Source: a virus. Taken from it: 64,000 bases of DNA. Positions 20,098 through 52,107 of this stretch are shown piece by piece (positions within the stretch are counted from its first letter, which is position 1; every line of letters begins with the position of its first letter). Under the pieces are notes generated by a model. The model did not search any database, had not been told where the DNA came from, and saw nothing but the letters and a program-made list of their open reading frames with translations. The stretch lies in the IMG/VR virus record IMGVR_UViG_3300048924_000151, positions 3,285 through 67,284 of that record; one strand, given 5' to 3'. The position numbers and the translations under genes are program-made.

Positions 20098-20201
20098 TGT
20101 CGTCTTTCTTTTGATACCAGCAGTTGCATTCGAAAGCGTTACACTTCGGATCGGTACATGAAGGCGGTGGCGCCATCCTGCGGATATCGTTGATCTGATC
20201 T

Positions 20202-22564: not shown

Positions 22565-25132
22565 TTACATCGGTTCCCCGTCGTTCGCGGTCCCCGGTTC
22601 GAAGCCCTCTCCGCTCGCAGGAACGTCATCGAGCACCGCTATGTAGTTTTCTAGTGTCTTCGTATAGTGCCGCAGAACCTTGTTCCTTACAGCGTTCTCC
22701 GCGTCCCTATGGCGTTCGGCAATCTCCCTACCGGCCTCGTTATATAGTACCAACGAGCTATTCCCCTTGGTCTTGATCTGCTCCCAGTGGCGAGCAAGAC
22801 CCGCATTCTCGATGATAGCATTTAAGGCGCGTGCGCTGATGCCTTTCTTGTTAGCAGATTGAACTACCAACTCGTCATGCAGCATGGTAGTGTTGATAAC
22901 AACCGGCATCGTTTGCGCCAGCGCCCACTTCGCAAAGTTCGTAACCATATCTTCCTGAGGAGATATGTTTTCTCTCATAACCTCGCGCTTGCGTTTCGTA
23001 AAAGGCGCGTTACTACCCGAGTTCCAGTAGTCTCCGAAGTTCTGCGCTGCATACATAATAGCCTCATAGCCGCACTTGTTATCAAGCCAATCGGCGAATG
23101 CGGTGAACTTATCCATGCGCTGCGCAGCCGGACAGCGACATTCGGGCGGACACTTGCCTATCACTTCCTCGCAAGCAAAGCACCGCTTAGGAGGCGTCTG
23201 GAGCAGGCTAGGGATAAACCAGCGCCTATCCGTGCCGGAGAATTTCATCGCGTCGGTATGGTTGCTTGCCGCCCAGACTTGTGCGGGTGTCGGCATGAAG
23301 ACCGGGTTGCCGTTCTTAACTACCACGGATTGCTCCGACTGCGTGACCGAACTCTTTAAGGCGTCGGCAGTTGCGAAGCGGTGATCTTCACTCCACAACT
23401 CGTCAATACCAACGAACTTTGCATTCGCTAGGTAGCCGTTGTACGGTGTATTGATAATCTTGACGCTTGGGAAGCTACAGTTGCGGAAACCGACTAGAGG
23501 GGGGATCACTTTATTAATCATGAAGCTTTTGCCGCCGCCTTCGTACACCGATAAAAGCAGCACGCCAAACGGCACCTTAATCTCAGGTCTAGCTATTAAG
23601 GTGAATAGCGACTTCTTCAAATTGTATCGGTCTTCGGCATCGATGCAGAGGAATTCTAGATACTCATCGAAAATGTCGATCGGTAGTTCGATCGGTCGGA
23701 CCTTTGATGGCTTATACACGTTCAGATAGTCGCCGCCGTTCCACTCTACAATACCAAACGGATGACCCGGTAGCGATGCTTTAGCAACAGCATGCATCTC
23801 CCCATGCTTCGCGAACAAATCCGCAATCCGTCCGCTGCTAAAGCACCGATTGCTCAGATACCGATTCAGTGCCGGGGCTTCTTTTTCTTCTTCCGGCCGA
23901 TGTATATGAACAAACTTATCCTGCGACGTCAGATAGCAAACCTGATTGCGCGCGTGTTCCTTCAAAATCTCTACTGGCTTAAAGTCCGCAATCTGCTGCG
24001 GCGTCATCCCCTTATGAGGCTTGCTCATCTCCGTCATAAAGGTTACATCGGTCAGCAGGTCTTCCAGCAGCGGCCCTTTATAGATGCGCTTGCCTCCGAC
24101 TTCGATGTATAGGCTGTCCGGCATCGGGTCTTTCATGTCGTAAGACGCCGGGAAACGCTTAAGGGGATCGAGGTTCCAGTTCAGGATGAAGGTCGGCGCG
24201 TCGATGCGCCGGGCGATATTGCGCATGTACTTAAGGCCGATGTCGTCGTTGTCGGCGGCGCAGATGACGCGCTTAAACTTCTTGGAGTTTATCTGGTCTA
24301 CGTCTACGGCGTAGGGGTTAACCGCACCGCCCATGCACCCTAGATGGAAGACGCCGAATAGTTCGCCTGCGAGGCCGTTCTGCTCGCGCAAGGTATCGCC
24401 GCTGCTGTCGATATCGTTGCTCATCTTATGCGCATGCCGGGCCTTTGCAGCGCCCTCATGTATCATAAGCGTATCCTGCCCCGCATAATTCTCCCAACCC
24501 CACTGCGGCAACCCTTCGTCGGGATATCCCTGCTGCCATGTGCCGTCTGAATACGGGCTGAACTGCACATACTTCTTGTTCTTCCCTTCCTCATATTCCC
24601 CATAGGGGTCTTCGATGAAGGTCTTAAACTCGACCATGCACACCTTGCGCTCTGCGGTGCGAAAGATCGTGATATCAGACTTCGGGATATCCATAACCCA
24701 TTTCGGGAAGACGCCCCCCTGCCGGATATCTAGGAAGCCAGCGCCATCGACTACGCTTTCGTTGCCGCTCTTATCGCGGGTCTTGGCGTTCCAGATATCA
24801 TCTTTATGGATCGTATGAGGAAAGATAAGCAGCGAGAATTCTGCGCGGATTGCCTGCGCTTCGAATGCGTCGGGCAGGTATTGCGAGTTGTTCTCATTCT
24901 CTATCGCGTGGCCATTGGCGGCGAAGCGTATAATTGTATTGGAGGCTACACCTTCGTAACCGTCCGGACGCTGCACGGCTTTAATGCGCCATGTGCGAGG
25001 GCCTACGCGGTCGGCTCCAATTCGTTCGGCCCATCCGTTCGCCGCAGGCGTAGACCCAGGACCAGTATAATTCAAGCGCGGCAAGTCGGGGGGCGCGCTG
25101 GCGGGGAGTGCGGAAGATTTAGCCTTCGCCAT
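22565..25132 (-). CDS. DNA primase-helicase (TOPRIM-like plus SF3/D5-like helicase)
   Basis: IHEG...ADNDDIG TOPRIM; Walker A EGGGKS; IDE Walker B; ASNH...DRRW. Confidence 0.85.
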   Translation of the reverse strand: MAKAKSSALPASAPPDLPRLNYTGPGSTPAANGWAERIGADRVGPRTWRIKAVQRPDGYEGVASNTIIRFAANGHAIENENNSQYLPDAFEAQAIRAEFSLLIFPHTIHKDDIWNAKTRDKSGNESVVDGAGFLDIRQGGVFPKWVMDIPKSDITIFRTAERKVCMVEFKTFIEDPYGEYEEGKNKKYVQFSPYSDGTWQQGYPDEGLPQWGWENYAGQDTLMIHEGAAKARHAHKMSNDIDSSGDTLREQNGLAGELFGVFHLGCMGGAVNPYAVDVDQINSKKFKRVICAADNDDIGLKYMRNIARRIDAPTFILNWNLDPLKRFPASYDMKDPMPDSLYIEVGGKRIYKGPLLEDLLTDVTFMTEMSKPHKGMTPQQIADFKPVEILKEHARNQVCYLTSQDKFVHIHRPEEEKEAPALNRYLSNRCFSSGRIADLFAKHGEMHAVAKASLPGHPFGIVEWNGGDYLNVYKPSKVRPIELPIDIFDEYLEFLCIDAEDRYNLKKSLFTLIARPEIKVPFGVLLLSVYEGGGKSFMINKVIPPLVGFRNCSFPSVKIINTPYNGYLANAKFVGIDELWSEDHRFATADALKSSVTQSEQSVVVKNGNPVFMPTPAQVWAASNHTDAMKFSGTDRRWFIPSLLQTPPKRCFACEEVIGKCPPECRCPAAQRMDKFTAFADWLDNKCGYEAIMYAAQNFGDYWNSGSNAPFTKRKREVMRENISPQEDMVTNFAKWALAQTMPVVINTTMLHDELVVQSANKKGISARALNAIIENAGLARHWEQIKTKGNSSLVLYNEAGREIAERHRDAENAVRNKVLRHYTKTLENYIAVLDDVPASGEGFEPGTANDGEPM

Positions 25133-36000: not shown

Positions 36001-36960
36001 ATGTCGCACGAAGTCGAAACGATTGCATACGTTGGCGAAACCCCTTGGCACGGTATCGGCACGCGCTGCGCCGATGGCATCTCCACCGACGATATGCTGG
36101 TGGCCGCCGGTCTGGACTGGACCGTTAAGCAATACCCCATGCAGGTAACGCTGGAGGATGGCAAGTCCATCGATGTAGAAGGCAAGCGCGCCCTGATCCG
36201 TTCGAAGGATCATAAGGTGATGAACGTTTCGTCCGATAGCTGGACGCCCGTGCAGAATGCCGATCTCATCGGCTTTATGCGCTCTTACGTCGAAAGCGGC
36301 GGCGCGAAGCTGGAGACGGCCGGAAGCCTGCGCGACGGTTCGGTTATCTGGGGCCTCGCGAAACTGGATCGCTCCTTCGAAGTATCAAAGAAGGACAAGG
36401 TTCAGGGCTACCTCCTGATCACCGGCTCGCACATCGTCGGCGTATCGACCAAAATCCGCACCGTTGCAACCCGCGTCGTCTGCATGAATACAATGCGGAT
36501 GGCGGAACGCGAAGTCGGCAGTGTCTGCTACAAGCAGAACCACCTTGCCGAATTCGATGTGAATGCGGCCAAGATTGCGGTCGCAACTGCGAACGAAGAA
36601 TTGGCGCAGGCGGAAAGCCGCTACAAGAAGATCAAGAAGCTGAAACTCAGCATCGAAGATGCGGTCCAGAAGCTTTACTGGAAGGTTCTTCCGGACAACG
36701 TCTATTCGACCGAAAGCGTCAAGAAGCTTCTCGCCGCGCCGGAAACTCAGTCGGCTCGCATGCAGGCCCTCATCGATAGCTACAAGACCGCGCCGGGCGC
36801 TGACGTCGGAACCGGCTGGGGCGCGCTGAACGGCTTCACGCACTGGACTGATCATAAGTTCGGCAACAGCGGCGAGGCTCGCATGCATCGCGTTACGTTC
36901 GGTGACTTCTCGCGCGAGAAGGATGCGATGGAGAAGACCCTTCTGGAATTGGCGGAGTAA
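36001..36960 (+). CDS. DUF932-family phage/plasmid protein
   Basis: MSHEVETIAYVGETPWHGIG, ETAGSL, RVVCMNT, GTGWGALNG motifs. Confidence 0.85.
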   Translation: MSHEVETIAYVGETPWHGIGTRCADGISTDDMLVAAGLDWTVKQYPMQVTLEDGKSIDVEGKRALIRSKDHKVMNVSSDSWTPVQNADLIGFMRSYVESGGAKLETAGSLRDGSVIWGLAKLDRSFEVSKKDKVQGYLLITGSHIVGVSTKIRTVATRVVCMNTMRMAEREVGSVCYKQNHLAEFDVNAAKIAVATANEELAQAESRYKKIKKLKLSIEDAVQKLYWKVLPDNVYSTESVKKLLAAPETQSARMQALIDSYKTAPGADVGTGWGALNGFTHWTDHKFGNSGEARMHRVTFGDFSREKDAMEKTLLELAE

Positions 36961-37042
36961 TGTTGCCACTGCACTCTGCCGATGTGGTCGCCCGGCAACT
37001 CCCCCTTGCCGGGCGACTTCCTCCAACCTAGAAAGAACCACA

Positions 37043-37696
37043 ATGCCAATCTCAGAAAAGTCCGATCCGAACCAGTGGCCCGACCGCTTCCTTGTGATAC
37101 TTGCGCATGCGATGCATCGCGCTGAGCTCGCAGAGAACGCTGGCGAGACGCCCGATTACAACATCCTTCCTCCGCCGCCTGAGGCTGACAAACGCGGAGA
37201 TGTGGATATATCTATCAACGCTATGTTACACATCGCCGTTTTGGAATTGGTACCCGGCGACGAAGGCGATGCATATTTTCGCGGCAAGCAAAAGGCCGTT
37301 ATAACGAAGCTTGCGCAGCAACTGATGAACGGTGAATTTCGCGGCATGGACCCGACGCCGGATATTCCTTTCGCAGCGCGCGATAGCGCAGCGCCGGGAC
37401 GCGTTGCATCCTACAGCGAGCCGCGCGCCCCGAAGGCCCCGCGCGAGCCTAGAGCAGAGCGCCCGGCGAGCGACGGCCCGAAGGCCCCGCGCGCATCCGC
37501 CCTAGGCGGCAAGACCCTGCACAGCCTATGCGCCCCCGGCGTTAACCCGCGCGCTGCGGGATCGCATGGGCATAAGTCATTCCAGATTATTCTGGATAGC
37601 CCCGGCATCGAACACAGCGCATACCTCGCAGCCGGGGGGCGACAGGCCGATCTGGCCTATAACGTAACCAAGGGCTTCGTTGAAATCCGCGACTAA
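37043..37696 (+). CDS. Hypothetical protein with C-terminal paralog domain (3/3)
   Basis: NPRAAGSHG...DLAYNVTKGFV. Confidence 0.65.
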   Translation: MPISEKSDPNQWPDRFLVILAHAMHRAELAENAGETPDYNILPPPPEADKRGDVDISINAMLHIAVLELVPGDEGDAYFRGKQKAVITKLAQQLMNGEFRGMDPTPDIPFAARDSAAPGRVASYSEPRAPKAPREPRAERPASDGPKAPRASALGGKTLHSLCAPGVNPRAAGSHGHKSFQIILDSPGIEHSAYLAAGGRQADLAYNVTKGFVEIRD

Positions 37697-37709
37697 AGGA
37701 ACCACACTC

Positions 37710-38246
37710 ATGAAGAAGATGCGATTTGATACAAGCAAGCCGATTGCGACCTCGCTTGAGTTCTTCAACGCGGCAATGAACAGGGAGGTAAAACCCCCCA
37801 ATCCGATAGGGGAGAAGGTCGGCGGGTTGTACCTGAACATCGGCGCAGGGACGAAGGAATTCCCGTGGGCAGTATCGATGCAACGACCGCAATGGAACGC
37901 GCCGGACCCGTTGCCCTACAGCGATAATGTTATCGATGGTATCGTGGCTCTGCATTTCTTTGAGCATCTCAGCGGGCGAGATGTACCGATCGTTCTCGCG
38001 GAATGCGCCCGCGTGCTTAAGTCGGGTGGCCTGATCAACATCGCCGTTCCGCATCGTGCAGGCGGAATGTCCGTGCAGGACTTGGATCATAAGTCGTTCT
38101 TCATGGAACGAACTTGGGACACATTGCTGAACAACGAATACTATCAGACGTTCGGCAATGAAATCCCGCTCTACATAAATTACAACTTGATCATGGGCGA
38201 CGAAGAACGTACCCTTACGGTATTCACCCAGATGCGAAAGCCTTGA
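37710..38246 (+). CDS. Class I SAM-dependent methyltransferase
   Basis: LNIGAG motif I; HFFEHL; ECARVLKSGG. Confidence 0.8.
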   Translation: MKKMRFDTSKPIATSLEFFNAAMNREVKPPNPIGEKVGGLYLNIGAGTKEFPWAVSMQRPQWNAPDPLPYSDNVIDGIVALHFFEHLSGRDVPIVLAECARVLKSGGLINIAVPHRAGGMSVQDLDHKSFFMERTWDTLLNNEYYQTFGNEIPLYINYNLIMGDEERTLTVFTQMRKP

Positions 38247-38314
38247 TAGATACACGCCTCAGATTGTTAGCGCCCGGCGCGGCGAACGTGCTATAAACTA
38301 ACGTATCCTGCGGA

Positions 38315-40063
38315 ATGTATCAAATGATCGAATGTAAAATCGTCGGGGACCGCGCTACTGTCGCGGTCCCGCAAAGTATCAAAATGCTACTTCTTAGCAC
38401 GTCGCTAGAGGGCAGGCGCGTCTGGCTTAAAGGCGGTGGCCTTAGCATCGATGCGACACGCCATAACCTTGATAAGCTCAAGGCAGGTATTCCCGGTCTA
38501 TTCGTCACGGAAGAACTGAAGCCGACGCATGTTACAAGCCGTCGCAGGTTTACGTATGAGCCCGTGTTCCCGCCAATGCAGCATCAACATCGTTGTCTAG
38601 ATAAGATGTGGGGCCTTGGGCAGGGAGAAGATCAGGGCGCACGTTCGGACGGCAATCCCGTTACCGCCTTTGCGGTTTTCGCAGACGTAGGAACCGGCAA
38701 GTCAAAGATCAGTATCGACTTCGCAGGGCAACTATTCTCCAAAGGAATCATCGATGCGATGATCGTGATCGCTCCAAAGGGAGTGCATGAGCAGTGGGTG
38801 TACGAGCAGTTGCCCACTCACTATCAGTATCCTATCAATACAATTTTGTGGCCGTTCAAAGGCGATTTCAATTACACCACGCTCAATCCTAACAACCTTA
38901 CCGCGCTCTGCATAAATTGGGAGGCCGTTCGGACTGAGCGAGGGATCGAGGCGATGAATAATTTCATCGCGTATTTCAAAGGCCGCATCCTGTTAGTCGC
39001 AGACGAAAGCCACCGCATCAAGAACAAAGAAAGTGCGACGTGGGACGCTGCCGAGAAGTTGGGCAACAAATGCTCACATAAGATCGCGATGACCGGTACG
39101 CCGATTGGTACAAACCTGCTGGACGAGTGGGCGCAGATTTGCTGGCTTGATGAAGACATCATCGGCATTCGGTACAAGAAGTCTTTTACCAACGAGTATC
39201 TGATACTTGGTGGATACGACGGGGATCAAATCGTCGGCGTGCAGAACATGGACCGATTTCGCAAGCTGGTCGATCCTCATACGTTCAGCATTACGCGCGA
39301 AGGCATGGGGCATCCGCCTCCGGTAAGAGAGCGTTGGAGCTTCCATATGACGAAGCGACAGCGCGAGATGATCCGTGAGATCAAGGAAGACCTCGTCACA
39401 CAAATCGATACAGGCGAGTTGATGATGGCAGCTAATGCTGCTGTCGCATTCTTGCGTATGCAGCAGATCAGTAACGGCTTCATCGTGGAGAAGATCGATG
39501 TCGAAACGCAAATCGTCCATCCTATATTTCCTAAGCTTATGGACAATCCGCGAATTGCTGCCATGGGTGATTATGTTGACAACCACCCCGGCAAGCTAAT
39601 AATCTGGGCACGTTTCCGAGACGATATTAAATTCATCGCAGAGTTTTACCGGTTGACCGGTCGCAAGTTCGTTGAGTATCACGGCGGGATAGATAGCGAC
39701 GGCAGACGTGCAGCGGTACAGGGCTTTATGCAGGGTGACGCGCAGGGCTTCCTAGCGACAACTGCGACGGGCGGCACGGGCCTTAACTTGCAAGGCGCGT
39801 GCAACTATGATCTGTTCTACAGCAGCGATGATAATTTTATCACTCGCACTCAGGCTGAAGGCCGCATTGATCGTATCGGTTCGAAGGGGCTTATAACCCA
39901 CACCGACCTATTCGCCCGCGCCTCTATGGACGGTCGCATCCTAAGCAGGCATCGGACTAAGGCGCTGCTTACTGAAATGAGCATCGGGGACTTGCGCACT
40001 ATGCTAGTCACCGATGACGAAGAATTCGAAAAGCCTATCATCACTGCCGATAACTGGAGCTAA
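38315..40063 (+). CDS. SNF2-family helicase
   Basis: DVGTGKS, DESH, MTGTP, GTGLNL, QAEGRIDRIG. Confidence 0.9.
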   Translation: MYQMIECKIVGDRATVAVPQSIKMLLLSTSLEGRRVWLKGGGLSIDATRHNLDKLKAGIPGLFVTEELKPTHVTSRRRFTYEPVFPPMQHQHRCLDKMWGLGQGEDQGARSDGNPVTAFAVFADVGTGKSKISIDFAGQLFSKGIIDAMIVIAPKGVHEQWVYEQLPTHYQYPINTILWPFKGDFNYTTLNPNNLTALCINWEAVRTERGIEAMNNFIAYFKGRILLVADESHRIKNKESATWDAAEKLGNKCSHKIAMTGTPIGTNLLDEWAQICWLDEDIIGIRYKKSFTNEYLILGGYDGDQIVGVQNMDRFRKLVDPHTFSITREGMGHPPPVRERWSFHMTKRQREMIREIKEDLVTQIDTGELMMAANAAVAFLRMQQISNGFIVEKIDVETQIVHPIFPKLMDNPRIAAMGDYVDNHPGKLIIWARFRDDIKFIAEFYRLTGRKFVEYHGGIDSDGRRAAVQGFMQGDAQGFLATTATGGTGLNLQGACNYDLFYSSDDNFITRTQAEGRIDRIGSKGLITHTDLFARASMDGRILSRHRTKALLTEMSIGDLRTMLVTDDEEFEKPIITADNWS

Positions 40064-42933: not shown

Positions 42934-43521
42934 ATGTCAAATGCAGACGACTTTGACGTCGGCGCAGAATTGGCCCCGGCAGGACCGTTAGCCGCACTCA
43001 GGGCACTAGCCGACGAAGCATCGGCTTTGGATGAAGAAATCGAAGCCATCGAAAGCCTTCTGGAGATTAAGAAGGCTGAGATGACTGAGATCAAAACTAT
43101 AAAGATGCCGAAAATCATGATCGAGTCAGGCGTTCCATTGCTTGATGTCGGCCTCCGGCGTTTCGAATTGCAGAAATTCGTTTCCGGCAAATTACCGGAA
43201 GAAGAACCGCAGCGGACTACAGCAATTGAAAAGCTGATGGAATACGAAGGAGGTGGTATCATTACCGCAGACGTTACCGTTCAGTTCGGTCGCGGAGATC
43301 ACAACGCTTTCGTTTCTCTCCGTGAAGAACTGAAAGAACGCGGCTTTGCGGTGACAGCAGATACCGAAAAGGTCCATGCGTCATCTTACTGCGCATTCTT
43401 GCGAAGGCGTCTGGAAGACGGGAAAGATATCGATGCTGATATCATGAACGTCCACTTCGGAGATATCGTGAAAATAAACAAAGTGCCGAAAGCATTGCTC
43501 AAGAAAAGAGGATTGGCATAA
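42934..43521 (+). CDS. Conserved replication-module hypothetical protein
   Basis: Coiled-coil N-terminus; follows SSB-like gene. Confidence 0.6.
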   Translation: MSNADDFDVGAELAPAGPLAALRALADEASALDEEIEAIESLLEIKKAEMTEIKTIKMPKIMIESGVPLLDVGLRRFELQKFVSGKLPEEEPQRTTAIEKLMEYEGGGIITADVTVQFGRGDHNAFVSLREELKERGFAVTADTEKVHASSYCAFLRRRLEDGKDIDADIMNVHFGDIVKINKVPKALLKKRGLA

Positions 43522-44165
43522 TGTCTACTATCAACGACATCGCGAAGATGGAAGAAGAACTGGCGTCGCTTCGTCTCGCTCGCCAGACCGACCAGCATAT
43601 GCTCTCCATGCAGGACTTCGAACTCCGAAGCCTCCGAAGCGACAACATCACGCTTCGCGGAAGGATTGAAGAAGAACTCATGCGGGGTCGGGAGCTTGAC
43701 ACCCTGCTCCGGACCCTCTCTGCGGGCCTCGTTTCCGGCCTTGCGATCTATGCGAACGGCCGGAATGCCGCCGCAGCCGCAAGGCAGGGCGCGTTAGAAC
43801 CGGAGCCGGGGGCCGAAGCCTGCCCGGAGCCGGAACCCCTCTCTACGGCCTTCTCCGCAGGGGCGGAACCGGAGGGAACCCCCCGTTTGGGTTCCGTCAT
43901 TCCGGACCCGGACCAGAGGGTTGTTCCGGAGGCCGTAGAGAGGTTTGCGCCCCGCAGGGTACTAGGCCCGCCTATGACGGCTATGGACGTTGCTACGGGC
44001 CTTCCTAGCCGCACCGTGCCCAGGCAAGTGGTCCAGCATCCTCTTGAAGAACGGTTGGCATTGGCAGCGGACGGCATCGGCAGGCCGCACCGTACCCCGA
44101 TACCGGGCGGACCGGAATTCGTTGATCAGGAATTGCCTCCTATGTTCCTGAGGAATTCGAAGTGA
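43521..44165 (+). CDS. Hypothetical coiled-coil/Pro-rich protein
   Basis: TAATG-coupled. Confidence 0.6.
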   Translation: MSTINDIAKMEEELASLRLARQTDQHMLSMQDFELRSLRSDNITLRGRIEEELMRGRELDTLLRTLSAGLVSGLAIYANGRNAAAAARQGALEPEPGAEACPEPEPLSTAFSAGAEPEGTPRLGSVIPDPDQRVVPEAVERFAPRRVLGPPMTAMDVATGLPSRTVPRQVVQHPLEERLALAADGIGRPHRTPIPGGPEFVDQELPPMFLRNSK

Positions 44166-45067
44166 GTTTTGTTGTCATCGGCGCAGGCATGGCGGGGCTT
44201 TTAGCTTCCGCCATGCTGAGAGGGGAATGCACAGGCGTCTATGAACGCGCGCCTTGCCTTCCTAATAATCACAGCGCGGTCCTTCGGTTTCGTTCCGCAG
44301 TCGTCGGAGATACCCTAGGCATCCCATTCAAGAAAGTGCGCGTCATCAAGGCCGTCCATCCTTATATAAATCCCATCGCTGAGGCGATTGCCTATTCTAT
44401 CAAGACCAATGGAACGGCATCTCTGCGCAGCAGCATCTCAGCGCGCGGTGAAGTCGATGATCGATATATCGCTCCAACTGATTTGGTAATGCAGATGGGC
44501 AGGATGTCGGTAGATAAGATCGTGTTCAGCGTCGATTTCAAGAACCAATTCGAAGGCCCGGTCATCAGCACTATGCCAATGCCGGTCCTTATGGAAGTTC
44601 TGGAGTATAAGCAGCGCGAGGCGTTTGATTTCGGTAGCTATAGCGGCACGAACATTATCGTCAAGCTTCGTAACTGTGACATTTATTCGACGCTGTATGT
44701 TCCCGACCCGGAAGTGCGTTACAACCGGGTATCTATAACCGGCGATGAAATGATCATCGAAATGCGCGGCACTATCGATGCGAGCGAAGTGCAAAAAATA
44801 ATCATCGATGCAATGCTAGGCTGTGGCTTTACAGAACCGGACTTTGCATTGTCTTACTCAGTGCGTGAGCAGCGTTACGCAAAGATACTTCCCATCGAGG
44901 ATGCAGCGCGCAAGCGCTTTATACAATGGGCATCTCGCGAGCGCGGTGTATTCTCTCTTGGTCGTTATGCGACTTGGAGGCCCGGATTGCTTATGGACGA
45001 TATAGTGAACGACGTTCGCGTCATTCAGAGAATAGCGCGCGACAACCACTCATACGATCACACTTAG
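44162..45067 (+). CDS. FAD-dependent oxidoreductase, UDP-galactopyranose-mutase-like
   Basis: N-terminal VIGAGMAG Rossmann motif plus VYER; C-terminal GRYATWR...MDD. Confidence 0.7.
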   Translation: MSFVVIGAGMAGLLASAMLRGECTGVYERAPCLPNNHSAVLRFRSAVVGDTLGIPFKKVRVIKAVHPYINPIAEAIAYSIKTNGTASLRSSISARGEVDDRYIAPTDLVMQMGRMSVDKIVFSVDFKNQFEGPVISTMPMPVLMEVLEYKQREAFDFGSYSGTNIIVKLRNCDIYSTLYVPDPEVRYNRVSITGDEMIIEMRGTIDASEVQKIIIDAMLGCGFTEPDFALSYSVREQRYAKILPIEDAARKRFIQWASRERGVFSLGRYATWRPGLLMDDIVNDVRVIQRIARDNHSYDHT

Positions 45068-45076
45068 GGAGCTATC

Positions 45077-45814
45077 ATGAACGTTCAGCTTATCGACTAT
45101 ACTGGATACGGCTCGCGCCATCCCGCAGACCACGCAGCCAATGTTCTTATCTTCACGAAGAACACCCGACTCAAGATGGAGCCGGACGGCGCAGCGCAGA
45201 TCGAACGATGGGACGCGGCTCGCAAGCTGGAAGAACTTACGTACATGGCGGCTACAATCCCGTCGTCGCACGAATTCGTCCATTATACGTTCTGCATTAC
45301 CGGCGTGTCGCGCGCTTTCACTCATCAATTCGTTCGCACGCGAACCGGTAGTTATGCACAGCAGACCATGCGCGTTCTCGATGTGTCCGGCTGGAGCTAT
45401 ACAACCGGTCCGACGTTGCACAATTTCGAAGGAACGTTTGAGCTTTGGGAGGATACGATGAAGACCATCGATCTTGCCTATCAAGAGCTCATTGCGAAAG
45501 GCGTATCAATCGAAGATGCGCGCGGCATCCTGCCGACGAATATCCAAACCAATATCGTCGCAGGCTTTAACCTTCGCACTCTCTGCGAACTTGTGCAGAA
45601 GCGTTCGTCTTCTCGCGTGCAGGGCGAATATCGCGATGTGCTTAACGGCATGCGCGCAGAGGCGATCCGTGTTCACCCGTTCGTGGAACTGTTTCTCAAT
45701 TCGACGCCGGTTAAAGCCGCTGACGATCTGGAGGCGCTTGTCCTTCAGCATATGCCTGCGGAGTTGCGCATCACGGCAGTCAAGCTTATCGACAAGTTGC
45801 GGAGCGCAGTCTAA
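45077..45814 (+). CDS. thyX: Flavin-dependent thymidylate synthase-like protein (divergent motif)
   Basis: HEF..YTF.ITGVSRAFTHQFVRTR..SYAQQTMR, EDARGILP, NLR. Confidence 0.8.
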   Translation: MNVQLIDYTGYGSRHPADHAANVLIFTKNTRLKMEPDGAAQIERWDAARKLEELTYMAATIPSSHEFVHYTFCITGVSRAFTHQFVRTRTGSYAQQTMRVLDVSGWSYTTGPTLHNFEGTFELWEDTMKTIDLAYQELIAKGVSIEDARGILPTNIQTNIVAGFNLRTLCELVQKRSSSRVQGEYRDVLNGMRAEAIRVHPFVELFLNSTPVKAADDLEALVLQHMPAELRITAVKLIDKLRSAV

Positions 45815-46305
45815 TGCCTGCAATCGTCGTTGATCTTGATGGCACGCTGAGCGATCATTCTCACCGTGCCCACCTCGCTATCAAGAGAGACTGGAACGCT
45901 TACAATGCTGCGGCGTATCTAGACCCGCCGCATAAAGAGGTCATCGAATTCCTAAAGGATGCGCGCGTTGGGTGCCCGGAATGCGAGCACATTCTGCTTA
46001 CGGCTCGCAGCGATGCGTGGTATATCCAGACCGGCGATTGGCTCAAGAACATCGGGGCAACGTCTCTGTTCGATACGCTGTTGATGCGCCCAAAAGATGA
46101 CATGCGCAGCGATGCGATCATAAAGCCACTTATGCTCATCGAGCATTTCGGCGGCAACATTGCACGGGCAAAAAGCGAAGTGCGGATGATACTTGAAGAC
46201 CGCACTACGGTTGTCAACGCTTGGCGCGAGATTGGCTTTAAGTGCTGGCAGGTCCGTGCAGATATCATGCACGAAGAAACGATTTACACTCAAGGCGGAG
46301 ATTGA
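45814..46305 (+). CDS. HAD-family phosphatase (T4 PNKP 3'-phosphatase-like)
   Basis: VDLDGTL, LTAR, LLMRP...K, EDR motifs. Confidence 0.85.
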   Translation: MPAIVVDLDGTLSDHSHRAHLAIKRDWNAYNAAAYLDPPHKEVIEFLKDARVGCPECEHILLTARSDAWYIQTGDWLKNIGATSLFDTLLMRPKDDMRSDAIIKPLMLIEHFGGNIARAKSEVRMILEDRTTVVNAWREIGFKCWQVRADIMHEETIYTQGGD

Positions 46306-46306
46306 A

Positions 46307-47926
46307 ATGTTAGTTCTTGGTTTGAAACTTACGCATGACGGCGCTGTCGCGATTATGGACGGCAGGCGTCTAGTCGGCGCAATTGAGATGGAGAAGGTGG
46401 AGAACCGCCCCCGCCACTCGCATTGCAGGGGGATGGCTGACGTTGAGCAGGCCGTTCGTATGTTCGGCTATGAGGTGGGAGATTTTGATATCATATCTAT
46501 CGATGGTTGGTCATCTGGCATTATCCCCGGATGGAACGACCTGCAAGTCAATGAATACGTTGATAATGAAAATTGCGAACGATATATCGAATGCAAAGGG
46601 TTCGCAGGTTTTGGACATGATTATATTTCCTACACTCATGTGCAGAACCATATATCGTCGGCCTTCCGCACTCACCCCGATGCGCCGGAAGAAGCCTATT
46701 GTATTGTATGGGATGGCGGAATTGGACCCACAGTATTCAAAGTCACGAACTACGGGACTGTATACATCGGCCGCATTCATGATTTCGTCGGTTCCGTCTA
46801 CTCGATTATGGCCCGATACTATGGGCCGTTCAAGGATCAAGCGTACATCGATGCTACGCCGGATCAGATCGTAATGGATCGCATGAAGGGCGGATACGAT
46901 GTGCCCGGAAAGCTTATGGCTTGGATCGCGAACGGAAAGCCCGACTACGGCGTTGTTCATGCAATCAATAAAGAGCTCATCGATCATGCGATGCCTAGCA
47001 GGCTGCCTCAGCCTTTGGCAGAGCATGGGTTCGCAAGGGCGCTTGGCTCTTACAACTACGGCACCGATGCCGATCTAATGCTCAACGCGCATCTTGCTTT
47101 GCAGCAGTCTTTGGTCGAAGGCGCTACGCAATTGATCCCAAAAGGATCACATCTTATGTTTGTTGGCGGAAGCGCGCTTAATATCAAATGGAATTCTGCG
47201 CTTCGAAATACGGGACGCTTTGCAAGTGTATGGGTCCCACCTTTCCCGAATGATGCGGGCTCGGCTATCGGCGCTGCGATGTCGGTCGTCGGGCCGACGA
47301 TGGGCAATGCATCGTGGAACGTGTTCAGCGGACCCGGTGTGAACTTCACGATGGAGCGCGGGACGCAATTAGGATGGGAATGCCGAGATGCTACGCCTTC
47401 TGAGGTAGCAGCCATCCTAGAAGATAATGCCTCAGTCGTTCTGGTGATGGACGGCAGGGCAGAGTTGGGTCCACGCGCACTAGGAAACCGTAGCTTGATT
47501 TCATCGGCAGTCGAAGCCGGCATGAAGGATCGATTGAATTACATGAAGAAGCGCGAGGGCTACAGACCGGTATCTCCGATCTGTATTGAAGACGAAGCGA
47601 AAAGCTGGTTTTCTCCGGGGACCCCTGATCCATACATGCTGTTCGAGCACGTAGCGAAAAATCTGGCGGTCAAGAATTGTCCGGCTATTGTGCATACGGA
47701 TGGAACGTCTCGTTTACAGACTATCGGAATTGATGTAGACACGACGGCCGCAAAAATTCTTCGAGCCTATCACAAGCGCACCGGCCTGCCGATCCTTTGC
47801 AATACGTCGGCAAACGATCTAGGCTGCGGCTTCTTTGCTGATACCGCGACCGCACTTGCATGGTGCCAGAAGAACGATTGCGATCATATGTATAGTAGCG
47901 GATTGCTATTCACGAGAAAAGTATGA
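46307..47926 (+). CDS. nodU: NodU/CmcH-family O-carbamoyltransferase
   Basis: GLKLTHDGAVA, WDGG, GGSALNIKWNSAL, VPPFPNDAGSAIGAA, ELGPRALGNRS, HTDGTSRLQT, LCNTSAN. Confidence 0.88.
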   Translation: MLVLGLKLTHDGAVAIMDGRRLVGAIEMEKVENRPRHSHCRGMADVEQAVRMFGYEVGDFDIISIDGWSSGIIPGWNDLQVNEYVDNENCERYIECKGFAGFGHDYISYTHVQNHISSAFRTHPDAPEEAYCIVWDGGIGPTVFKVTNYGTVYIGRIHDFVGSVYSIMARYYGPFKDQAYIDATPDQIVMDRMKGGYDVPGKLMAWIANGKPDYGVVHAINKELIDHAMPSRLPQPLAEHGFARALGSYNYGTDADLMLNAHLALQQSLVEGATQLIPKGSHLMFVGGSALNIKWNSALRNTGRFASVWVPPFPNDAGSAIGAAMSVVGPTMGNASWNVFSGPGVNFTMERGTQLGWECRDATPSEVAAILEDNASVVLVMDGRAELGPRALGNRSLISSAVEAGMKDRLNYMKKREGYRPVSPICIEDEAKSWFSPGTPDPYMLFEHVAKNLAVKNCPAIVHTDGTSRLQTIGIDVDTTAAKILRAYHKRTGLPILCNTSANDLGCGFFADTATALAWCQKNDCDHMYSSGLLFTRKV

Positions 47927-48324
47927 AGTCAGTTCCCGAAATGCTAGAGACGGCAGCGGAGACCTATCGGGATCGCAACGCCGTCTACGGTGACGACTAT
48001 AAAAAGATTGGCGCGATGTATGTCGCGCTTTTCCCGAATGGCCTGACAGTAAAAACCGCAGACGACTGGCAGCGCCTCGCGCTGCTTATGGCCGCAGTCG
48101 GCAAGATGCGACGCTACACGAACAACTTCGAAAGCGGGGGGCATGCTGACAGCCTGCTTGACCTCGCCGTATATTCGACTATGCTAAAGGAATTGGACGA
48201 ATGCGCGCTATCATCTTCGACACAGAAACGACAGGCCTCCTCAAAAAGAAAGCAGCGCCGCTCAACACGCAACCAAGTGTCATCGAGTTTTACGGATGTG
48301 CGGTTGATCATACCGGTGAAGTAA
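47923..48324 (+). CDS. All-alpha nucleotide pyrophosphatase-like (nucleotide-modification-associated) protein
   Basis: RNAVYGD...KMRRY...HADSLLDLAVY. Confidence 0.6.
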   Translation: MKSVPEMLETAAETYRDRNAVYGDDYKKIGAMYVALFPNGLTVKTADDWQRLALLMAAVGKMRRYTNNFESGGHADSLLDLAVYSTMLKELDECALSSSTQKRQASSKRKQRRSTRNQVSSSFTDVRLIIPVK

Positions 48325-48734
48325 TCGACGTTTACGAAACGCTGATAAAACCACCGGAAAAGATCGCGCCTATCATCACGCAAATCACAGGCATCACGAA
48401 CGAGATGCTGGAAGACGCACCCCCCTTCTCGTTCGTTGCGCCAAAGATCAAGAAGTTTTTGGAAGGCGGAGAGCGCGTTGTCGCTCACAATCTTTCATTC
48501 GATGTGGGTATGATCGATAACGAATTCGAAAGGCTTACGCAAGCACTTGCGTGGCCGAAGGTTAGAACTTGTACGGTCGAGCAGTTGGAGTTCATCAAGG
48601 GGCATCGGATGAAGCTGGCTGACTTATACAACTACTTTTTCCCCGGAGAGACTTACGGCGCGCATAGGGCGAAGGCAGACGTTGTTGCGCTTACCCGGAT
48701 TTATCGTGAATGCTTGGTGCGCAATTGGCTCTAG
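48201..48734 (+). CDS. dnaQ: DEDDh 3'-5' exonuclease (Pol III epsilon-like)
   Basis: DTETTG, AHNLSFD, HRAKAD. Confidence 0.9.
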   Translation: MRAIIFDTETTGLLKKKAAPLNTQPSVIEFYGCAVDHTGEVIDVYETLIKPPEKIAPIITQITGITNEMLEDAPPFSFVAPKIKKFLEGGERVVAHNLSFDVGMIDNEFERLTQALAWPKVRTCTVEQLEFIKGHRMKLADLYNYFFPGETYGAHRAKADVVALTRIYRECLVRNWL

Positions 48735-49168
48735 CGTTTCCTCCTAGGCGCGGGTTTAAGCTGGCAGACCCGGAAGACCCTGACCACCCCGGCGTCGATG
48801 AGCATACGTATCGCATATTGCTCACCGACGATCCAAACGGCCTTTGCGCGATAGTCGATGCGATAGACTACTGGTGGGCATGCCAATGGCGCTGGCATAA
48901 TCATCCGAGCAATCCGAACGGCAACAGGGTAGTTAAGAACTATGCGAGGCGCGCGCCTAGAGGCAGTCGAGATAGCAACGAAGGCGGCGCGCCAACTCAA
49001 ATATACCTGCACAAAGCCATCTTAATTCGGATGGGTGCGCCGCAGCCGACCGAGTATCATACAATAGGAGATCACCAAGACGGGGATAGCCTAAACTGCC
49101 GACGATATAACCTAGAGTGGAATACTCTCTCTGGTAATGCGCAAACTGCGAAGCGAAAGAAACGATGA
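48710..49168 (+). CDS. HNH homing-endonuclease-like protein
   Basis: YLHKAIL...GDHQDGDSLNCRRYNL. Confidence 0.7.
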   Translation: MLGAQLALAFPPRRGFKLADPEDPDHPGVDEHTYRILLTDDPNGLCAIVDAIDYWWACQWRWHNHPSNPNGNRVVKNYARRAPRGSRDSNEGGAPTQIYLHKAILIRMGAPQPTEYHTIGDHQDGDSLNCRRYNLEWNTLSGNAQTAKRKKR

Positions 49169-52107
49169 CCTTTCAGAGCATTCGATACCGTACTGGCTTT
49201 AGCTTCCGAGCCGCGACCGGGCACATCGATGAAGTGCTCAATCGCATCATCGAGACCGGCGCGAAGGTCGCGCCTATAACGGATCGATCCAGCACATTCG
49301 GATTTAACAAATGGTCGAAGGCTTGCAAGAAAAAGGGCATTCGTCCCGTATACGGGATCGAACTTGCTGTTAGCGTTGATCCTGTAGCAAAGAAGCCTGT
49401 GATCGATTATTGGACTTTTATTTCATATAGTGACATCAAAGAAATCAATCGTCTTCTAGCCGTAGCGACTGCTCAGTTTAGGTATACAAACGTACTATCG
49501 TATGAGCAGGCTCTGGAAGCTGATTGCTTTAAAATCGTCGGGCATCGCAGCGACGTTGCGAGGATCGTTACAGCGAGCGGCCCTAAAGGCCCCCTTAACA
49601 CCTACTATGCCCTAGGGCCTGCCGTAAGCAGGGGCTACGTTGCGCAGATGCGGGAAGCAGGGATAAACCCCGCCGCATCCGGAGACAACATCTATCCGAC
49701 GAAGCGCCGAGAGGCGCAGGCTGAAATCATTCTAGGTCGCGGCTTTAGCTCGCAATCGTACCCCCAGCATATATTGAGCGAAGACGAATGGCTGGATAGT
49801 ATTGCGCATTTAGATATGAGTGCAGAGGAAATCGCAGCGGCCATTTATAACACAGAAGACATCCTAGAGCATAGCACTTCTCATATGGTGCTATCTGAAT
49901 TTATGATACCTGAAAAGCCGGAGACCTTGCGCGCGATGTGCGAGAGGGGGGCGGCCAAGCTAGGTGTCGATCTTACGAATGAAGTATACAAGGAACGATT
50001 AGATCGCGAGCTTATGCTTATCGATGTAAAAGGATATGACAACTACTTCTATATCGTTGCCGATCTTGTATCATGGGCTCGCGAAAGAATGCTAGTCGGC
50101 CCAGCGCGCGGTTCTAGCTGCGGCTCACTGGTATGCTATCTGCTGGGCATAACGATGGTAGACCCTATCCCTTACGGACTTCTGTTTGAGCGTTTCGTCG
50201 ATATCAATCGTATGGATATGCCAGATATCGACATCGACTTTGCCGATCAAAAACGGCATCTCGTTGAAGAATATGCAGCAGATAAATACGGCATCGATCA
50301 CGTTGCGCGCCTAGGCACCGTCAATATGTTCAAGGCCCGTTCAGCTTTGCAAACTACTTGCATGGAATTAAACGTGCCTCGTTGGAAGGCAGATAAGGCT
50401 CTGGACGCGCTCGTCAAGCGTTCGTCAGCAGACGCCCGCGCGATGGATACTCTTATCGATACCCTATCTCTTACGGATGCAGGCAAAGAGCTTGTCAGTG
50501 AGCATCCTGAAATTGTACCGGTGTTGGAAGGGTTCGAAGGCCACCCCCGCCATGCAGGCCAGCACGCGGCAGGTATCGTTATTTCAAAGACGCCAATTCG
50601 TGATACCGTCGCAATCGATAGCAGGACCGGCGCAACGCAATGTGATAAGAAGGATGCGGAAGAACTGAACCTGCTTAAGATAGACGCCCTTGGTCTCGTT
50701 CAGCTATCGATCTTTGAAGACTGCCTTGCGCTCGCCGGATTGCCTAAGAAACATCTTGATACAATTTCATATGATGATCCTGCTGCATATGCAGTGCTAA
50801 ACAATTCTCAGTTCGCAGGCATCTTTCAGTACAACGGGAAGGCGCTGCAATACCTCGCCAATTATATCAAGTCTGATAACCTTGAAGACATCATCTCTGT
50901 TACAGCCCTTGCGCGCCCCGGCCCTCTAGCATCTGGCGGCGCAAACGAGTGGGCACGGCGACGGATCGGAGCAGACCCGGTAACGTATCCGCATCCCGTA
51001 TTCGAAAGCCATCTCAAGAATTCTCTAGGGGTTATCATCTATCAAGAGCAGGTGATGACCATCGGCCGCGACATCGGAGATATGAACTGGGAGGAAGTGA
51101 CCCAAGTTCGTAAGGCTATGGCTAAGTCGATGGGCAAGGAATACTTTAACCAATTCGGAGATAAGTGGAAGATCGGTGCCATGAAAAAAGGCATCAGCAA
51201 AGAAGTAGCTGACACAGTATGGGATCAGCTTTGCGCATACGGCGCATGGTCGTTCAACCGTTCGCATTCGGTCGCATACGGAATGATCAGCTATCAATGC
51301 TGCTGGCTTAAGGCGCACTATCCTCTAGAGTTCGCAGCAGCGACTTTGCAACATGCGCACGATACAGAACTGCAACTGAAGCTCCTCCGTGAGATCGTGA
51401 GTGAAGGCCACAACTACATCCCCGTAGATGCCGAGCAATCGACTAACAGATGGACTGTCGGCGTTCGTGGGCCGAACAAGATGCGCGTTCTAGTCGGCCC
51501 GTTGCAGAACGTTAAAGGCATTGGCCCGAAAGGCGTAGTCAAAGTTATATCGGCGCGTGCATCCGGAAAGAAGTTGACTGGCCGTGAAGCAAAGCTATTA
51601 GAGAACCCAGTTACTCCTCTGGACAGCCTGTTCCCTATCCGCGATGCATTCCGCAAGTATCTTCCGGACCCGAAAGCGCGTAACATATTCACCGAGCCGA
51701 CGAAGATAATCGACATCCAATGTGTGCCGAAGAACAAGGCCGACGAAGAACATCTAGTCTTTTGCGTATTGGCTCGCATCGCACCGCGCGACGAAAACGA
51801 TTTGCAGAACGTCGCAAAGCGCGGATACGAATTGCGCGGACCAACGCAAGCGTTGAACTTGCGCATCATGGATGATACAGACGTCTTATTCGCAAAGATT
51901 AATCGCATGGACTATGAAAGGATCGGCGCAGAAATCGTAGAGCGGGGGGTTCCACTTAAACATCTGTACGTTCTAAAGGGCACTGTGCGTAGCGGTCTTG
52001 ATTTTAGAATGTTCAATGTTAAAGCGGCACGCTATATCTGCCCTATCGGCGGCGTCGAAGAACCGAAGCCTGTGAAGGTGAAAAAGACTAAGCAGCAAGA
52101 CGACTAG
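49165..52107 (+). CDS. dnaE: DNA polymerase III alpha subunit (family C)
   Basis: GPARGS, RMDMPDIDIDF, QHAAG, LLKIDALG, YQEQ, FNRSHS, WLKAHYP. Confidence 0.95.
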   Translation: MTFQSIRYRTGFSFRAATGHIDEVLNRIIETGAKVAPITDRSSTFGFNKWSKACKKKGIRPVYGIELAVSVDPVAKKPVIDYWTFISYSDIKEINRLLAVATAQFRYTNVLSYEQALEADCFKIVGHRSDVARIVTASGPKGPLNTYYALGPAVSRGYVAQMREAGINPAASGDNIYPTKRREAQAEIILGRGFSSQSYPQHILSEDEWLDSIAHLDMSAEEIAAAIYNTEDILEHSTSHMVLSEFMIPEKPETLRAMCERGAAKLGVDLTNEVYKERLDRELMLIDVKGYDNYFYIVADLVSWARERMLVGPARGSSCGSLVCYLLGITMVDPIPYGLLFERFVDINRMDMPDIDIDFADQKRHLVEEYAADKYGIDHVARLGTVNMFKARSALQTTCMELNVPRWKADKALDALVKRSSADARAMDTLIDTLSLTDAGKELVSEHPEIVPVLEGFEGHPRHAGQHAAGIVISKTPIRDTVAIDSRTGATQCDKKDAEELNLLKIDALGLVQLSIFEDCLALAGLPKKHLDTISYDDPAAYAVLNNSQFAGIFQYNGKALQYLANYIKSDNLEDIISVTALARPGPLASGGANEWARRRIGADPVTYPHPVFESHLKNSLGVIIYQEQVMTIGRDIGDMNWEEVTQVRKAMAKSMGKEYFNQFGDKWKIGAMKKGISKEVADTVWDQLCAYGAWSFNRSHSVAYGMISYQCCWLKAHYPLEFAAATLQHAHDTELQLKLLREIVSEGHNYIPVDAEQSTNRWTVGVRGPNKMRVLVGPLQNVKGIGPKGVVKVISARASGKKLTGREAKLLENPVTPLDSLFPIRDAFRKYLPDPKARNIFTEPTKIIDIQCVPKNKADEEHLVFCVLARIAPRDENDLQNVAKRGYELRGPTQALNLRIMDDTDVLFAKINRMDYERIGAEIVERGVPLKHLYVLKGTVRSGLDFRMFNVKAARYICPIGGVEEPKPVKVKKTKQQDD

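Follow-up and report, generated by a model that had tools for sequence, protein, structure and literature searches.

A NodU-type O-carbamoyltransferase recurring in a candidate thymidine hypermodification block of distant relatives of PB1-like phages

INTRODUCTION

A viral DNA stretch of 64,000 nucleotides (hereafter the window: bases 3285–67284 of IMG/VR virus record IMGVR_UViG_3300048924_000151, 67,284 bases in total) carries, on the plus strand at window positions 44162–52107, a block of eight genes in which a NodU/TobZ-family O-carbamoyltransferase lies among enzymes of nucleotide chemistry, upstream of a family C DNA polymerase. We suggest, with confidence evenly balanced between acceptance and rejection, that the block is a thymidine hypermodification pathway whose product, that is, a hydroxyl of the thymidine hypermodification, would be O-carbamoylated by this enzyme. 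The record has direct terminal repeats and a completeness rating of 100%, and the window makes up nearly all of a complete 67-kb phage genome distantly related to the PB1-like (Pbunavirus), Carpasinavirus and Wifcevirus phages.

That phage carbamoyltransferases can carbamoylate 5-hydroxymethylcytosine (5hmC) beside ThyA-fold enzymes, as stated in the preliminary description of the window, is in print (MetaGPA, eLife 2021, PMC8670742). The enzyme reported there makes 5-carbamoyloxymethylcytosine (5cmdC), acts on DNA and on dNTP and uses carbamoyl phosphate and ATP; for TobZ, the mechanism cited in the same source is the formation of carbamoyl-AMP from carbamoyl phosphate and ATP, after which the carbamoyl is passed to a hydroxyl (PMC8670742). 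The 5hmC enzyme belongs to the same family as the window enzyme and, likened by description, resembles it in combining Carbam_trans_N with Carbam_trans_C, in being phage-borne and in standing among nucleotide-metabolism genes beside a thymidylate-synthase-type enzyme. The partners differ, however: in the published account the 5hmC system co-occurs with ThyA-fold PF00303, PRA-PH and dCMP deaminase, whereas the window genome lacks ThyA and the partners are a divergent ThyX, a flavoprotein, a HAD phosphatase and a DUF6378 protein, with a thymidine derivative as the likely base. The study also distinguishes a “modified contig” clade and names the residues W408, G421 and R423.

Pathways of hypermodification based on 5-hydroxymethyldeoxyuridine (5-hmdU) use a DNA kinase after the hydroxymethylase. 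Those of phages M6, ViI, PaMx11 and others, as presented in PMC8989533, follow the logic proposed for the block, with a central reaction at uracil C5 and, after it, a varying set of tailoring enzymes whose genes cluster with those of replication; unlike it, they start, according to the same source, from a ThyA-family dUMP hydroxymethylase, and no homolog of their tailoring enzymes was identified in the window phage.

The Pbunavirus phages F8 and 14-1 share with the window the order flavoprotein, ThyX, HAD-DUF6378, DnaQ and DnaE. In phage therapy against Pseudomonas aeruginosa the PB1-like group is one of those most often employed, and its DNA was believed to be unmodified before 2025. A recent preprint reports new sugar-like thymidine derivatives of 362 and 390 Da in the virion DNA of F8 and 14-1, at about one quarter of thymidine and in TG contexts, together with resistance of F8 DNA to enzymes with TG-containing sites, and describes Pbunavirus as being without the genes usually used to predict hypermodification (10.1101/2025.03.31.646159). 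These phages differ from the window in having no carbamoyltransferase and in a fused HAD-DUF6378 protein, and it is for them that the adduct chemistry is known. Relatives such as Wifcevirus resist restriction as well, with the EcoP1_I type III system as the one exception named.

Among cellular enzymes, NodU, TobZ, GdmN and NovN have the same two-domain architecture and conserved motifs (closest relatives 35–42% identical), but they sit in nonribosomal peptide synthetase/polyketide synthase (NRPS/PKS), aminoglycoside or nod clusters, while the phage clade described below occurs only in the replication/nucleotide block. In the literature searched, carbamoyltransferase and ThyX were nowhere connected for phages of this kind, and 5cmdC was the only carbamoyloxymethyl base described from phage DNA. 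Neither the enzyme family nor carbamoylation of a DNA base as an idea is new; what is new here lies in the partners, the probable base and the phage group.

RESULTS

One carbamoyltransferase lineage recurs in the block

The carbamoyltransferase gene is intact, encodes 539 amino acids (aa) and lies, as first described, between the nucleotide enzymes and the polymerase (Table 1). Both of its domains, Carbam_trans_N (Kae1-like) and Carbam_trans_C (YrdC-like), score above their cut-offs, and the PDB matches are the carbamoyltransferase 7xb6, TobZ, GdmN and the novobiocin carbamoyltransferase. The best database matches are only 41% identical, many of the named ones being actinobacterial or Bacteroidota “NodU”. 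In comparison with 20 non-phage homologs, 110 positions are conserved in common with the bacterial enzymes, among them H10, D11, H111, H115, D136 and D316, which we take to correspond to the metal site of TobZ; the GPRALGNRS segment is conserved as well. Because these 110 positions are kept, the enzyme looks active.

A scan of IMG/VR with this single protein found no relative, and the gene seemed unique to the window phage. The apparent uniqueness was a sampling artefact and is ruled out by 30 further block-borne loci: nine of the 80 closest metagenome homologs sit in the same phage block, and all 21 of the IMG/VR loci found with clade-specific patterns, which were drawn from the block-borne metagenome sequences, carry the gene there too. 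At 90% identity or more, the 30 loci group into 22 clusters, with the gene in at least seven different positions (Table 2). All of these clusters but one, L160, have the carbamoyltransferase within the flavoprotein-to-DnaE block or next to block genes, some contigs being cut on one side. In L157 (7149–8813) the gene is split by one internal stop into open reading frames (ORFs) of 347 and 201 aa and may be a pseudogene or an assembly error. The survey of gene neighbourhoods proposed in the preliminary description for ThyX plus carbamoyltransferase in phages thus places the gene in related blocks (30 further loci, 22 clusters), although 73 loci found through ThyX lack it (see below).

TABLE 1. 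Genes of the block and a possible further member in the window
Product	Length (aa)	Window position	Strand	Family evidence
FAD/NAD(P)-binding flavoprotein	301	44162..45067	+	phrog_4828 E 7e-51; no Pfam family
Divergent ThyX-fold flavin enzyme	245	45077..45814	+	PF02511, E 1.3e-30, 107 bits
HAD phosphatase, PNKP phosphatase-domain type (HAD_PNKP)	163	45814..46305	+	PF25109 E 2.4e-20; phrog_415
NodU/TobZ-family O-carbamoyltransferase	539	46307..47926	+	PF02543 E 5e-43; PF16861 E 3.4e-41
DUF6378 protein	133	47923..48324	+	phrog_4889 C-terminal part, E 4.3e-19
DnaQ-like 3'-5' exonuclease (RNase_T)	177	48201..48734	+	PF00929 E 3.6e-24; phrog_192
Probable free-standing HNH endonuclease	152	48710..49168	+	weak: PF13392 E 0.0036; phrog_59 E 3.4e-5
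Family C DNA polymerase DnaE	980	49165..52107	+	PF07733, PF17657, PF02811; phrog_405 E 6e-212
Small S-adenosylmethionine (SAM) methyltransferase, possible further member		37680..38246	+	PF08241 E 8e-8

TABLE 2. Gene positions of the block-borne carbamoyltransferase (CbmT); brackets mark genes that are not always present
Gene order	Clusters or loci
flavoprotein > (methyltransferase) > CbmT > ThyX	10 clusters
ThyX > HAD > CbmT > (SDR) > DUF6378	4 clusters + window
ThyX > CbmT > HAD	L248
ThyX > CbmT > SDR > VOC > DUF6378	L243
DUF6378 > CbmT	L255, L157
DnaQ > CbmT > methyltransferase > DnaE	L251
CbmT > DUF6378 or DnaQ	L257, L158
CbmT after Pam3 gp34-like gene	L160

The relationship of these enzymes was examined in two trees, both quick searches with SH-aLRT as the only support. 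Tree 1 (IQ-TREE, LG+C20) holds 89 rows, namely the window, 77 of the 80 metagenome loci, nine named bacterial proteins and two cyanophage outgroups, with L157 left out for its stop and L211 and L235 for their short matches; the window and the eight block-borne rows form one clade (SH-aLRT 98), with a warning from the program about the meeting of two long branches, those of the window and L229. In tree 2 (LG+G4; 61 rows: the window, 22 other block-borne sequences, 27 of the 71 non-block loci spanning tree 1, nine bacterial proteins and two outgroups; partial L256 and L257 left out) all 23 block rows fall into a single clade (SH-aLRT 98; one label change). The block-borne carbamoyltransferases sampled in these trees are thus one clade, which nests within the NodU-like enzymes that bacteria carry in NRPS/PKS and nod clusters. 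The giant neighbours of non-phage homologs that were scanned are NRPS/PKS megasynthases in four of four cases, and 53 smaller neighbours include ABC transporters (5), Methyltransf_11 (5), NodS (4), carrier-protein domains (4) and thioesterases (3). Since the clade nests among NodU-like enzymes with NRPS/PKS and nod neighbours, the phage lineage derives from small-molecule O-carbamoyltransferases. The nearest non-phage homologs (L178, L184, L194, L210 and others) lie beside multi-module NRPS/PKS genes or NodS and make up a large set of putative natural-product carbamoylation clusters.

A second adjacency of ThyX and carbamoyltransferase occurs on two cyanophage-like contigs (L141:821–4692 and L115:5311–9158, the latter with psbA). 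There three genes come directly after a canonical ThyX bearing the RHR motif: a full-length distant carbamoyltransferase (25% identical to that of the window), a gene with the N-terminal domain only, and a CxxxCxxC radical-SAM-like protein. We give this little weight because it is found in only two of the 80 viral carbamoyltransferase loci examined. ThyA was near distant viral carbamoyltransferases in none of five records.

The backbone of the block is shared with relatives lacking the carbamoyltransferase

Relatives of the block were collected with patterns from the window ThyX, which recovered 73 IMG/VR loci, and their backbone was compared by tblastn, together with FoX6 and phiDCL-PA6. As the pattern-based scans had different sampling frames, the locus counts given here and elsewhere are not prevalences. 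A backbone of flavoprotein, divergent ThyX, HAD phosphatase, DUF6378, DnaQ and DnaE was found in the 73 loci, and the order flavoprotein-ThyX-(HAD)-DUF6378-DnaQ-DnaE is also seen at the protein level in FoX6, phiDCL-PA6, F8, 14-1 and Bas101. The F8 flavoprotein, ThyX, DUF6378, DnaQ and DnaE match those of the window in the same order at 31–47% identity; in the F8 and 14-1 module the flavoprotein, ThyX and HAD-DUF6378 are ORF65, ORF59 and ORF57. When the region was searched by blastn in 50,697 phage records, only about 300 bases of dnaE matched, at 67–71% identity, in Pbunavirus, Carpasinavirus, Wifcevirus and others. The backbone is therefore not special to the window phage, being present in Pbunavirus, Carpasinavirus and Wifcevirus as well, and the ThyX/PNK/DnaE modules ascribed to PB1-like phages from the outset are real.

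No carbamoyltransferase was found by tblastn in the 73 ThyX-found loci, FoX6 or phiDCL-PA6, nor in the cultured relatives. The candidate new pathway of the preliminary description is accordingly no novel assembly as far as six of its eight genes are concerned, these being a backbone common to at least 73 loci without the carbamoyltransferase.

A divergent ThyX lies beside a phage-only flavoprotein

The ThyX of the block was rightly called divergent, as changes throughout its clade make clear. Its fold family is not in question: the clade profile matches PBCV-1 ThyX (2cfa) with an E-value of 1.8e-35. Compared with the canonical enzyme of a cyanophage locus and with PBCV-1 ThyX, the window protein and its aligned relatives have the clade-wide motif RTRTGSYAQQTMR in place of RHR...S.RY, and SSWEF in place of HWSIFE, so that neither RHR(X)7S nor the histidine of the HxS(I/V)FE segment is present. 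Set against the canonical enzymes of T. maritima and PBCV-1, the His of RHR is replaced by Thr, the His of HxS(I/V)FE by Ser, and in S.RY the Ser by Thr and the Tyr by Val. The missing histidines are presumably those implicated in flavin/folate handling by T. maritima ThyX. Most nucleotide-contacting arginines, by contrast, are common to both groups; those of the ARG(I/V)LP and R...TQ.E segments are kept, and we take them to be the ones binding the dUMP phosphate.

Unlike canonical ThyX, the clade is always paired with a flavoprotein gene, which immediately precedes ThyX, in the same orientation, in 69 of 73 related loci; the remaining four are truncated at contig ends. The flavoprotein has a GxGxxG motif at residues 7–12 whose G7, G9 and G12 are invariant in the family alignment, and 23 of 34 family members give a weak NAD_binding_8 match (best E 1e-4). 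There are at least 2919 homologs of about 300 aa, none with a precomputed Pfam family, and the best 120 of these are all on contigs of at most about 64 kb. In the ESM Atlas, the neighbours of the 55%-identical homolog P0201 are headed by viral hypothetical proteins, with amine oxidase and PPOX flavoproteins after them. We therefore predict a phage-only FAD/NAD(P) Rossmann flavoprotein. Its initial designation as mutase-like, or similar to UDP-galactopyranose mutase (UGM), holds for the FAD/NAD(P) Rossmann motif and finds no support for the mutase: none of the 34 family members matches the GLF mutase family (PF03275) at E up to 1, the best UGM match of the family profile has an E-value of 0.15, and a single-sequence search gave no match. 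The phiDCL-PA6 counterpart bears the name “UDP-galactopyranose mutase” in GenBank, as an annotation and not as the result of a test.

ThyX is the sole thymidylate-synthase-type gene in the phage genome. A ThyA-type gene (PF00303) was found neither in the window genome nor in any of the five other complete genomes with a block-borne carbamoyltransferase, and no glycosyltransferase of the GT-A or GT-B families was found in the window genome. A search of the genome for Tet_JBP had no match, but says nothing because the control likewise matched nowhere.

Candidate tailoring enzymes vary within the block

The genes between ThyX and DnaQ, counted over 76 loci, include a short-chain dehydrogenase/reductase (SDR) in 34, a 160-aa SDR partner that is VOC/glyoxalase-like (PDB 3gm5, E 5.8e-5) in 30, a small Methyltransf_11 enzyme in seven and an FkbM methyltransferase in one. 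Nmad5 (“nucleotide modification associated domain 5”, PF18757) was found in one of the 76 (L004:8768–9364, E 2.9e-20). In L004 the Nmad5 gene is between ThyX and the HAD phosphatase, and a methyltransferase is between the flavoprotein and ThyX. The carbamoyltransferase is itself combined with an SDR (L229), with SDR and VOC proteins (L243) and with methyltransferases, which flank it in L239, L248 and L251 and are elsewhere in the same block in L247. The block is a hot spot for interchangeable tailoring enzymes. The methyltransferase upstream in the window (Table 1) shares 37–38% identity with the methyltransferases found inside the blocks of L041 and L014.

Layout of the block and its remaining genes

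Family scans against Pfam and PHROGs and an ORF listing give eight genes for the block (Table 1), which abut or overlap as first described: the junctions read, in order, +9, −1, +1, −4, −124, −25 and −4 nt, so no gap is greater than 9 nt. The carbamoyltransferase has a GGAG 7 nt upstream of its ATG, ends in an ATGA overlap with the DUF6378 gene (47923–47926) and has a G+C content of 0.518, matching its neighbour genes. The 124-nt overlap of the DUF6378 and dnaQ genes is confined to a low-complexity tail that relatives do not have. A promoter and terminator consensus scan of the region gave counts not above those of shuffled sequence, and a tRNA search found no tRNA genes in the window.

The HAD phosphatase has a DLDGT motif at its N-terminus, and in Pbunavirus and several relatives the HAD domain and DUF6378 are fused as one “PNK” protein. 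In the window the DUF6378 domain takes up about residues 1–95 of its protein, the remaining tail being the part that overlaps dnaQ. The window protein itself scores 20.8 bits, under the Pfam cut-off for DUF6378 of 27.1 bits, and 19 of 20 members of its family match DUF6378 (PF19905). This protein had been called a pyrophosphatase, an assignment that finds no support: none of the 20 members has a MazG or PRA-PH match in Pfam, and hhalign of the family against the MazG-like pyrophosphatases of F8, 14-1, Bas101 and phiDCL-PA6, which are encoded elsewhere in those genomes, gives a probability of 0.2%. The family profile found no relevant solved structure in the PDB, the lowest E-value (0.0045) being to a designed coiled-coil with no stretch passing alone.

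The window DnaE, which has PHP, alpha and finger domains, is 35% identical to that of F8. For the 152-aa ORF with the weak HNH match, which lies between dnaQ and dnaE, 75 related loci show no homolog at the corresponding place. In many relatives 0.3–2 kb of other sequence separates the two genes instead (e.g., L004, L018, L033 and L037), and this site resembles a hot spot for insertions of the homing type.

Directly 5' of the flavoprotein gene, and overlapping it by 4 nt, is a 214-aa Pro/Ala-rich ORF (window 43521–44165) that falls into neither a Pfam nor a PHROG family and that tblastn did not find in any of the 75 related loci. Further upstream (36001–40063) are a DUF932 protein, a 264-aa ORF without a family, the small methyltransferase and an SNF2-type helicase that is 27% identical to the F8 ORF53 helicase. 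Scans of 20 further plus-strand ORFs against PHROGs and Pfam returned only DUF932, the SNF2 helicase, the methyltransferase and Pam3 gp33- and gp34-like proteins.

Adduct masses and divergence between F8 and 14-1

By mass arithmetic, the 362 and 390 Da of the Pbunavirus adducts are what results when 5-hmdU (258) is joined, with loss of water, to a tetritol (122) or to a pentose (150); they fit deoxyuridine with a C-linked 1-deoxypentitol or hexosyl group equally well. Most module proteins of F8 and 14-1, whose adducts differ from each other, are 93–99% identical. Identity is lower around ThyX, at 79.7% for HAD-DUF6378, 77.8% for ORF58, 77.9% for ORF60 and 81.8% for ORF61. ORF70, at 23894–25090 in F8 (L259) and 19997–21301 in 14-1 (L260), has neighbours that are 91–99% identical. 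F8 ORF70, ORF66 and ORF69 gave no informative family in Pfam.

DISCUSSION

Proposed pathway

We propose that the nucleotide-chemistry genes for the flavoprotein, ThyX, HAD phosphatase and DUF6378 protein, in an early operon upstream of DnaQ and DnaE, would form the core of a thymidine (C5-uracil) hypermodification, and that this core would acquire swappable tailoring enzymes, including an SDR with a VOC-fold protein, SAM methyltransferases, Nmad5 and the NodU-type carbamoyltransferase. The C-terminal domain of the latter would form carbamoyl-AMP from carbamoyl phosphate and ATP, and the N-terminal domain would pass the carbamoyl to a hydroxyl of the modified base, adding 43 Da. The acceptor could be a sugar or polyol hydroxyl, as in Pbunavirus, or a bare 5-hydroxymethyl group, in which case ThyX would release its exocyclic-methylene intermediate to water (for the mechanism, as given there, see PMC8989533); carbamoylation could take place on DNA or at the nucleotide level. 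Gene content, synteny, the monophyly and lasting linkage of the carbamoyltransferase and the conservation of its catalytic positions are observed; that the block makes a Pbunavirus-type base, that the window phage has such a base, which hydroxyl is the acceptor, and that the modified base serves in the escape from host nucleases are all inferred.

The strongest evidence for an acceptor made by the block itself is the persistent linkage of one monophyletic carbamoyltransferase lineage to the flavoprotein/ThyX block through many rearrangements. Also in favour of the hypermodification reading are the absence of ThyA-type and GT-A or GT-B genes, the precedent of the 5hmC enzyme, the other tailoring enzymes that relatives carry in the block, and the lower identity between F8 and 14-1 of proteins encoded around ThyX. 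The preliminary description had foreseen a carbamoylated, possibly sugar-bearing pyrimidine. That prediction gains weight from the sugar-like thymidine derivatives that the preprint reports for Pbunavirus and from block linkage in 22 other clusters.

A further proposal goes beyond this, and we hold it as doubtful. The flavoprotein and the histidine-less ThyX may constitute a new flavin-dependent route that puts a sugar or polyol carbon skeleton on uracil C5 and needs neither a ThyA hydroxymethylase nor a TET/JBP dioxygenase nor a glycosyltransferase, and this would be the missing biosynthesis of the Pbunavirus adducts. SDR/VOC, methyltransferases, Nmad5 and the carbamoyltransferase would then be interchangeable tailoring, and the window phage would have a carbamoylated polyol- or sugar-thymidine, a base not yet described.

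Alternatives and points of difficulty

The main rival to a hypermodification pathway, which we judge somewhat unlikely, is that the block supplies dTMP in the ordinary way, through a two-component flavin system, and that the carbamoyltransferase is an unrelated auxiliary enzyme. ThyX would make dTMP, the flavoprotein would be its NAD(P)H-flavin reductase partner, the HAD and DUF6378 proteins would trim nucleotide pools or DNA ends, and the carbamoyltransferase would modify something other than DNA, for instance a glycan of the host envelope, a metabolite or an RNA. Such a role for the backbone agrees with the kept nucleotide-binding arginines of ThyX, with a flavoprotein that shows only a dinucleotide-binding motif and with the need for dTMP in Pbunavirus, where, going by the preprint, three quarters of thymidine stay canonical; it fits poorly with a ThyX clade devoid of two hallmark histidines, with the gathering of SDR/VOC, methyltransferases and Nmad5 in the same block, and with a superfamily that carries, as reported there, modified thymidine not explained by known gene sets. 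An auxiliary role for the carbamoyltransferase is suggested by its nearest cellular relatives in NRPS/PKS and nod-type clusters, by the PHROGs category of its family (“moron, auxiliary metabolic gene”) and by at least 599 other phage stretches with distant family members, 78 of the 80 examined having no homolog of the window block genes. An unrelated auxiliary gene would not be expected, however, to remain as one monophyletic lineage within the same few kilobases in 22 clusters and the window despite at least seven insertion points.

A simpler chemistry, in which ThyX is a flavin-dependent hydroxymethylase that stops before reduction and releases 5-hydroxymethyl-dUMP (or -dCMP), the carbamoyltransferase acting on the hydroxymethyl with no sugar involved, seems to us improbable, although it has the published precedent of 5hmC carbamoylation on DNA and dNTP (PMC8670742) and a ThyX mechanism that is described as passing through an exocyclic methylene open to water or other nucleophiles (PMC8989533). 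None of six complete genomes has a ThyA-type hydroxymethylase, and in 10 of the 22 clusters the carbamoyltransferase is directly upstream of ThyX, both as this chemistry would have it. Yet the same divergent ThyX occurs in many relatives without the carbamoyltransferase, and in Pbunavirus, where most thymidine is canonical and the reported adducts are far heavier than 5-hmdU. The characterised 5hmC enzyme, which is paired with a ThyA-type enzyme, showed no activity on 5hmdUTP in the published assays (PMC8670742), a result that tells against this direct route and against the hypermodification reading alike. Highly improbable, in our view, is a carbamoyltransferase that is a decaying or selfish insertion without present function. 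To be sure, an HNH gene lies near it (reckoned as two genes downstream), the gene is broken by a stop in L157 and the window copy is on a long branch, but the 539-aa frame is intact, the 110 conserved positions include the metal and nucleotide-binding motifs, the G+C content is like that of the neighbours, the junction sequences indicate translational coupling on both sides and the gene is kept in 21 other intact clusters.

The hypermodification reading has difficulties of its own. For the window phage the evidence is one of genes, and the adduct chemistry is that of its relatives F8 and 14-1; the single public sequencing run found, probably from the source sample, consists of contigs; the backbone could simply supply dTMP; and the carbamoyltransferase is dispensable for the block, being absent from the 73 loci and from cultured relatives. 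Its closest cellular relatives tailor secondary metabolites and Nod factors. The window copy deviates at 16 otherwise nearly invariant positions, several of them near the HxxxH segment, and its branch in tree 1 is long (1.74). The Nmad5 link is to one locus, L004. The most divergent protein between F8 and 14-1 is ORF70 (56.5% identity), outside the block, which makes ORF70 another candidate for the adduct difference between these phages. The substrates of ThyX enzymes are mononucleotides. In Pbunavirus the TG specificity points to an enzyme that works on DNA once it has been replicated, and such late modification would be difficult for a mononucleotide enzyme such as ThyX to bring about; within the block, neither a DNA-binding nor a base-flipping domain was found. 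The same specificity bears on the idea of a family C polymerase dedicated to modified nucleotides, which finds no support, there being no sign that DnaE or DnaQ specialise in this way. The available text of the preprint, finally, ties the Pbunavirus adduct to no gene (10.1101/2025.03.31.646159).

Implications

The flavoprotein, the divergent ThyX and HAD-DUF6378 offer a compact candidate gene set for the Pbunavirus adduct, one that would diversify by swaps of tailoring enzymes, the carbamoyltransferase being one branch with 23 sampled lineages. If the hypermodification reading is true, predictions from gene to adduct become directly testable, and a new carbamoylated thymidine derivative is predicted. 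It would further extend the flavin-N5 carbon-transfer chemistry of ThyX, TrmFO and MnmG to DNA hypermodification and supply further enzymes useful for DNA labelling. For the wider group of phages, it would account for the restriction resistance of relatives such as Wifcevirus, which are without known protection genes.

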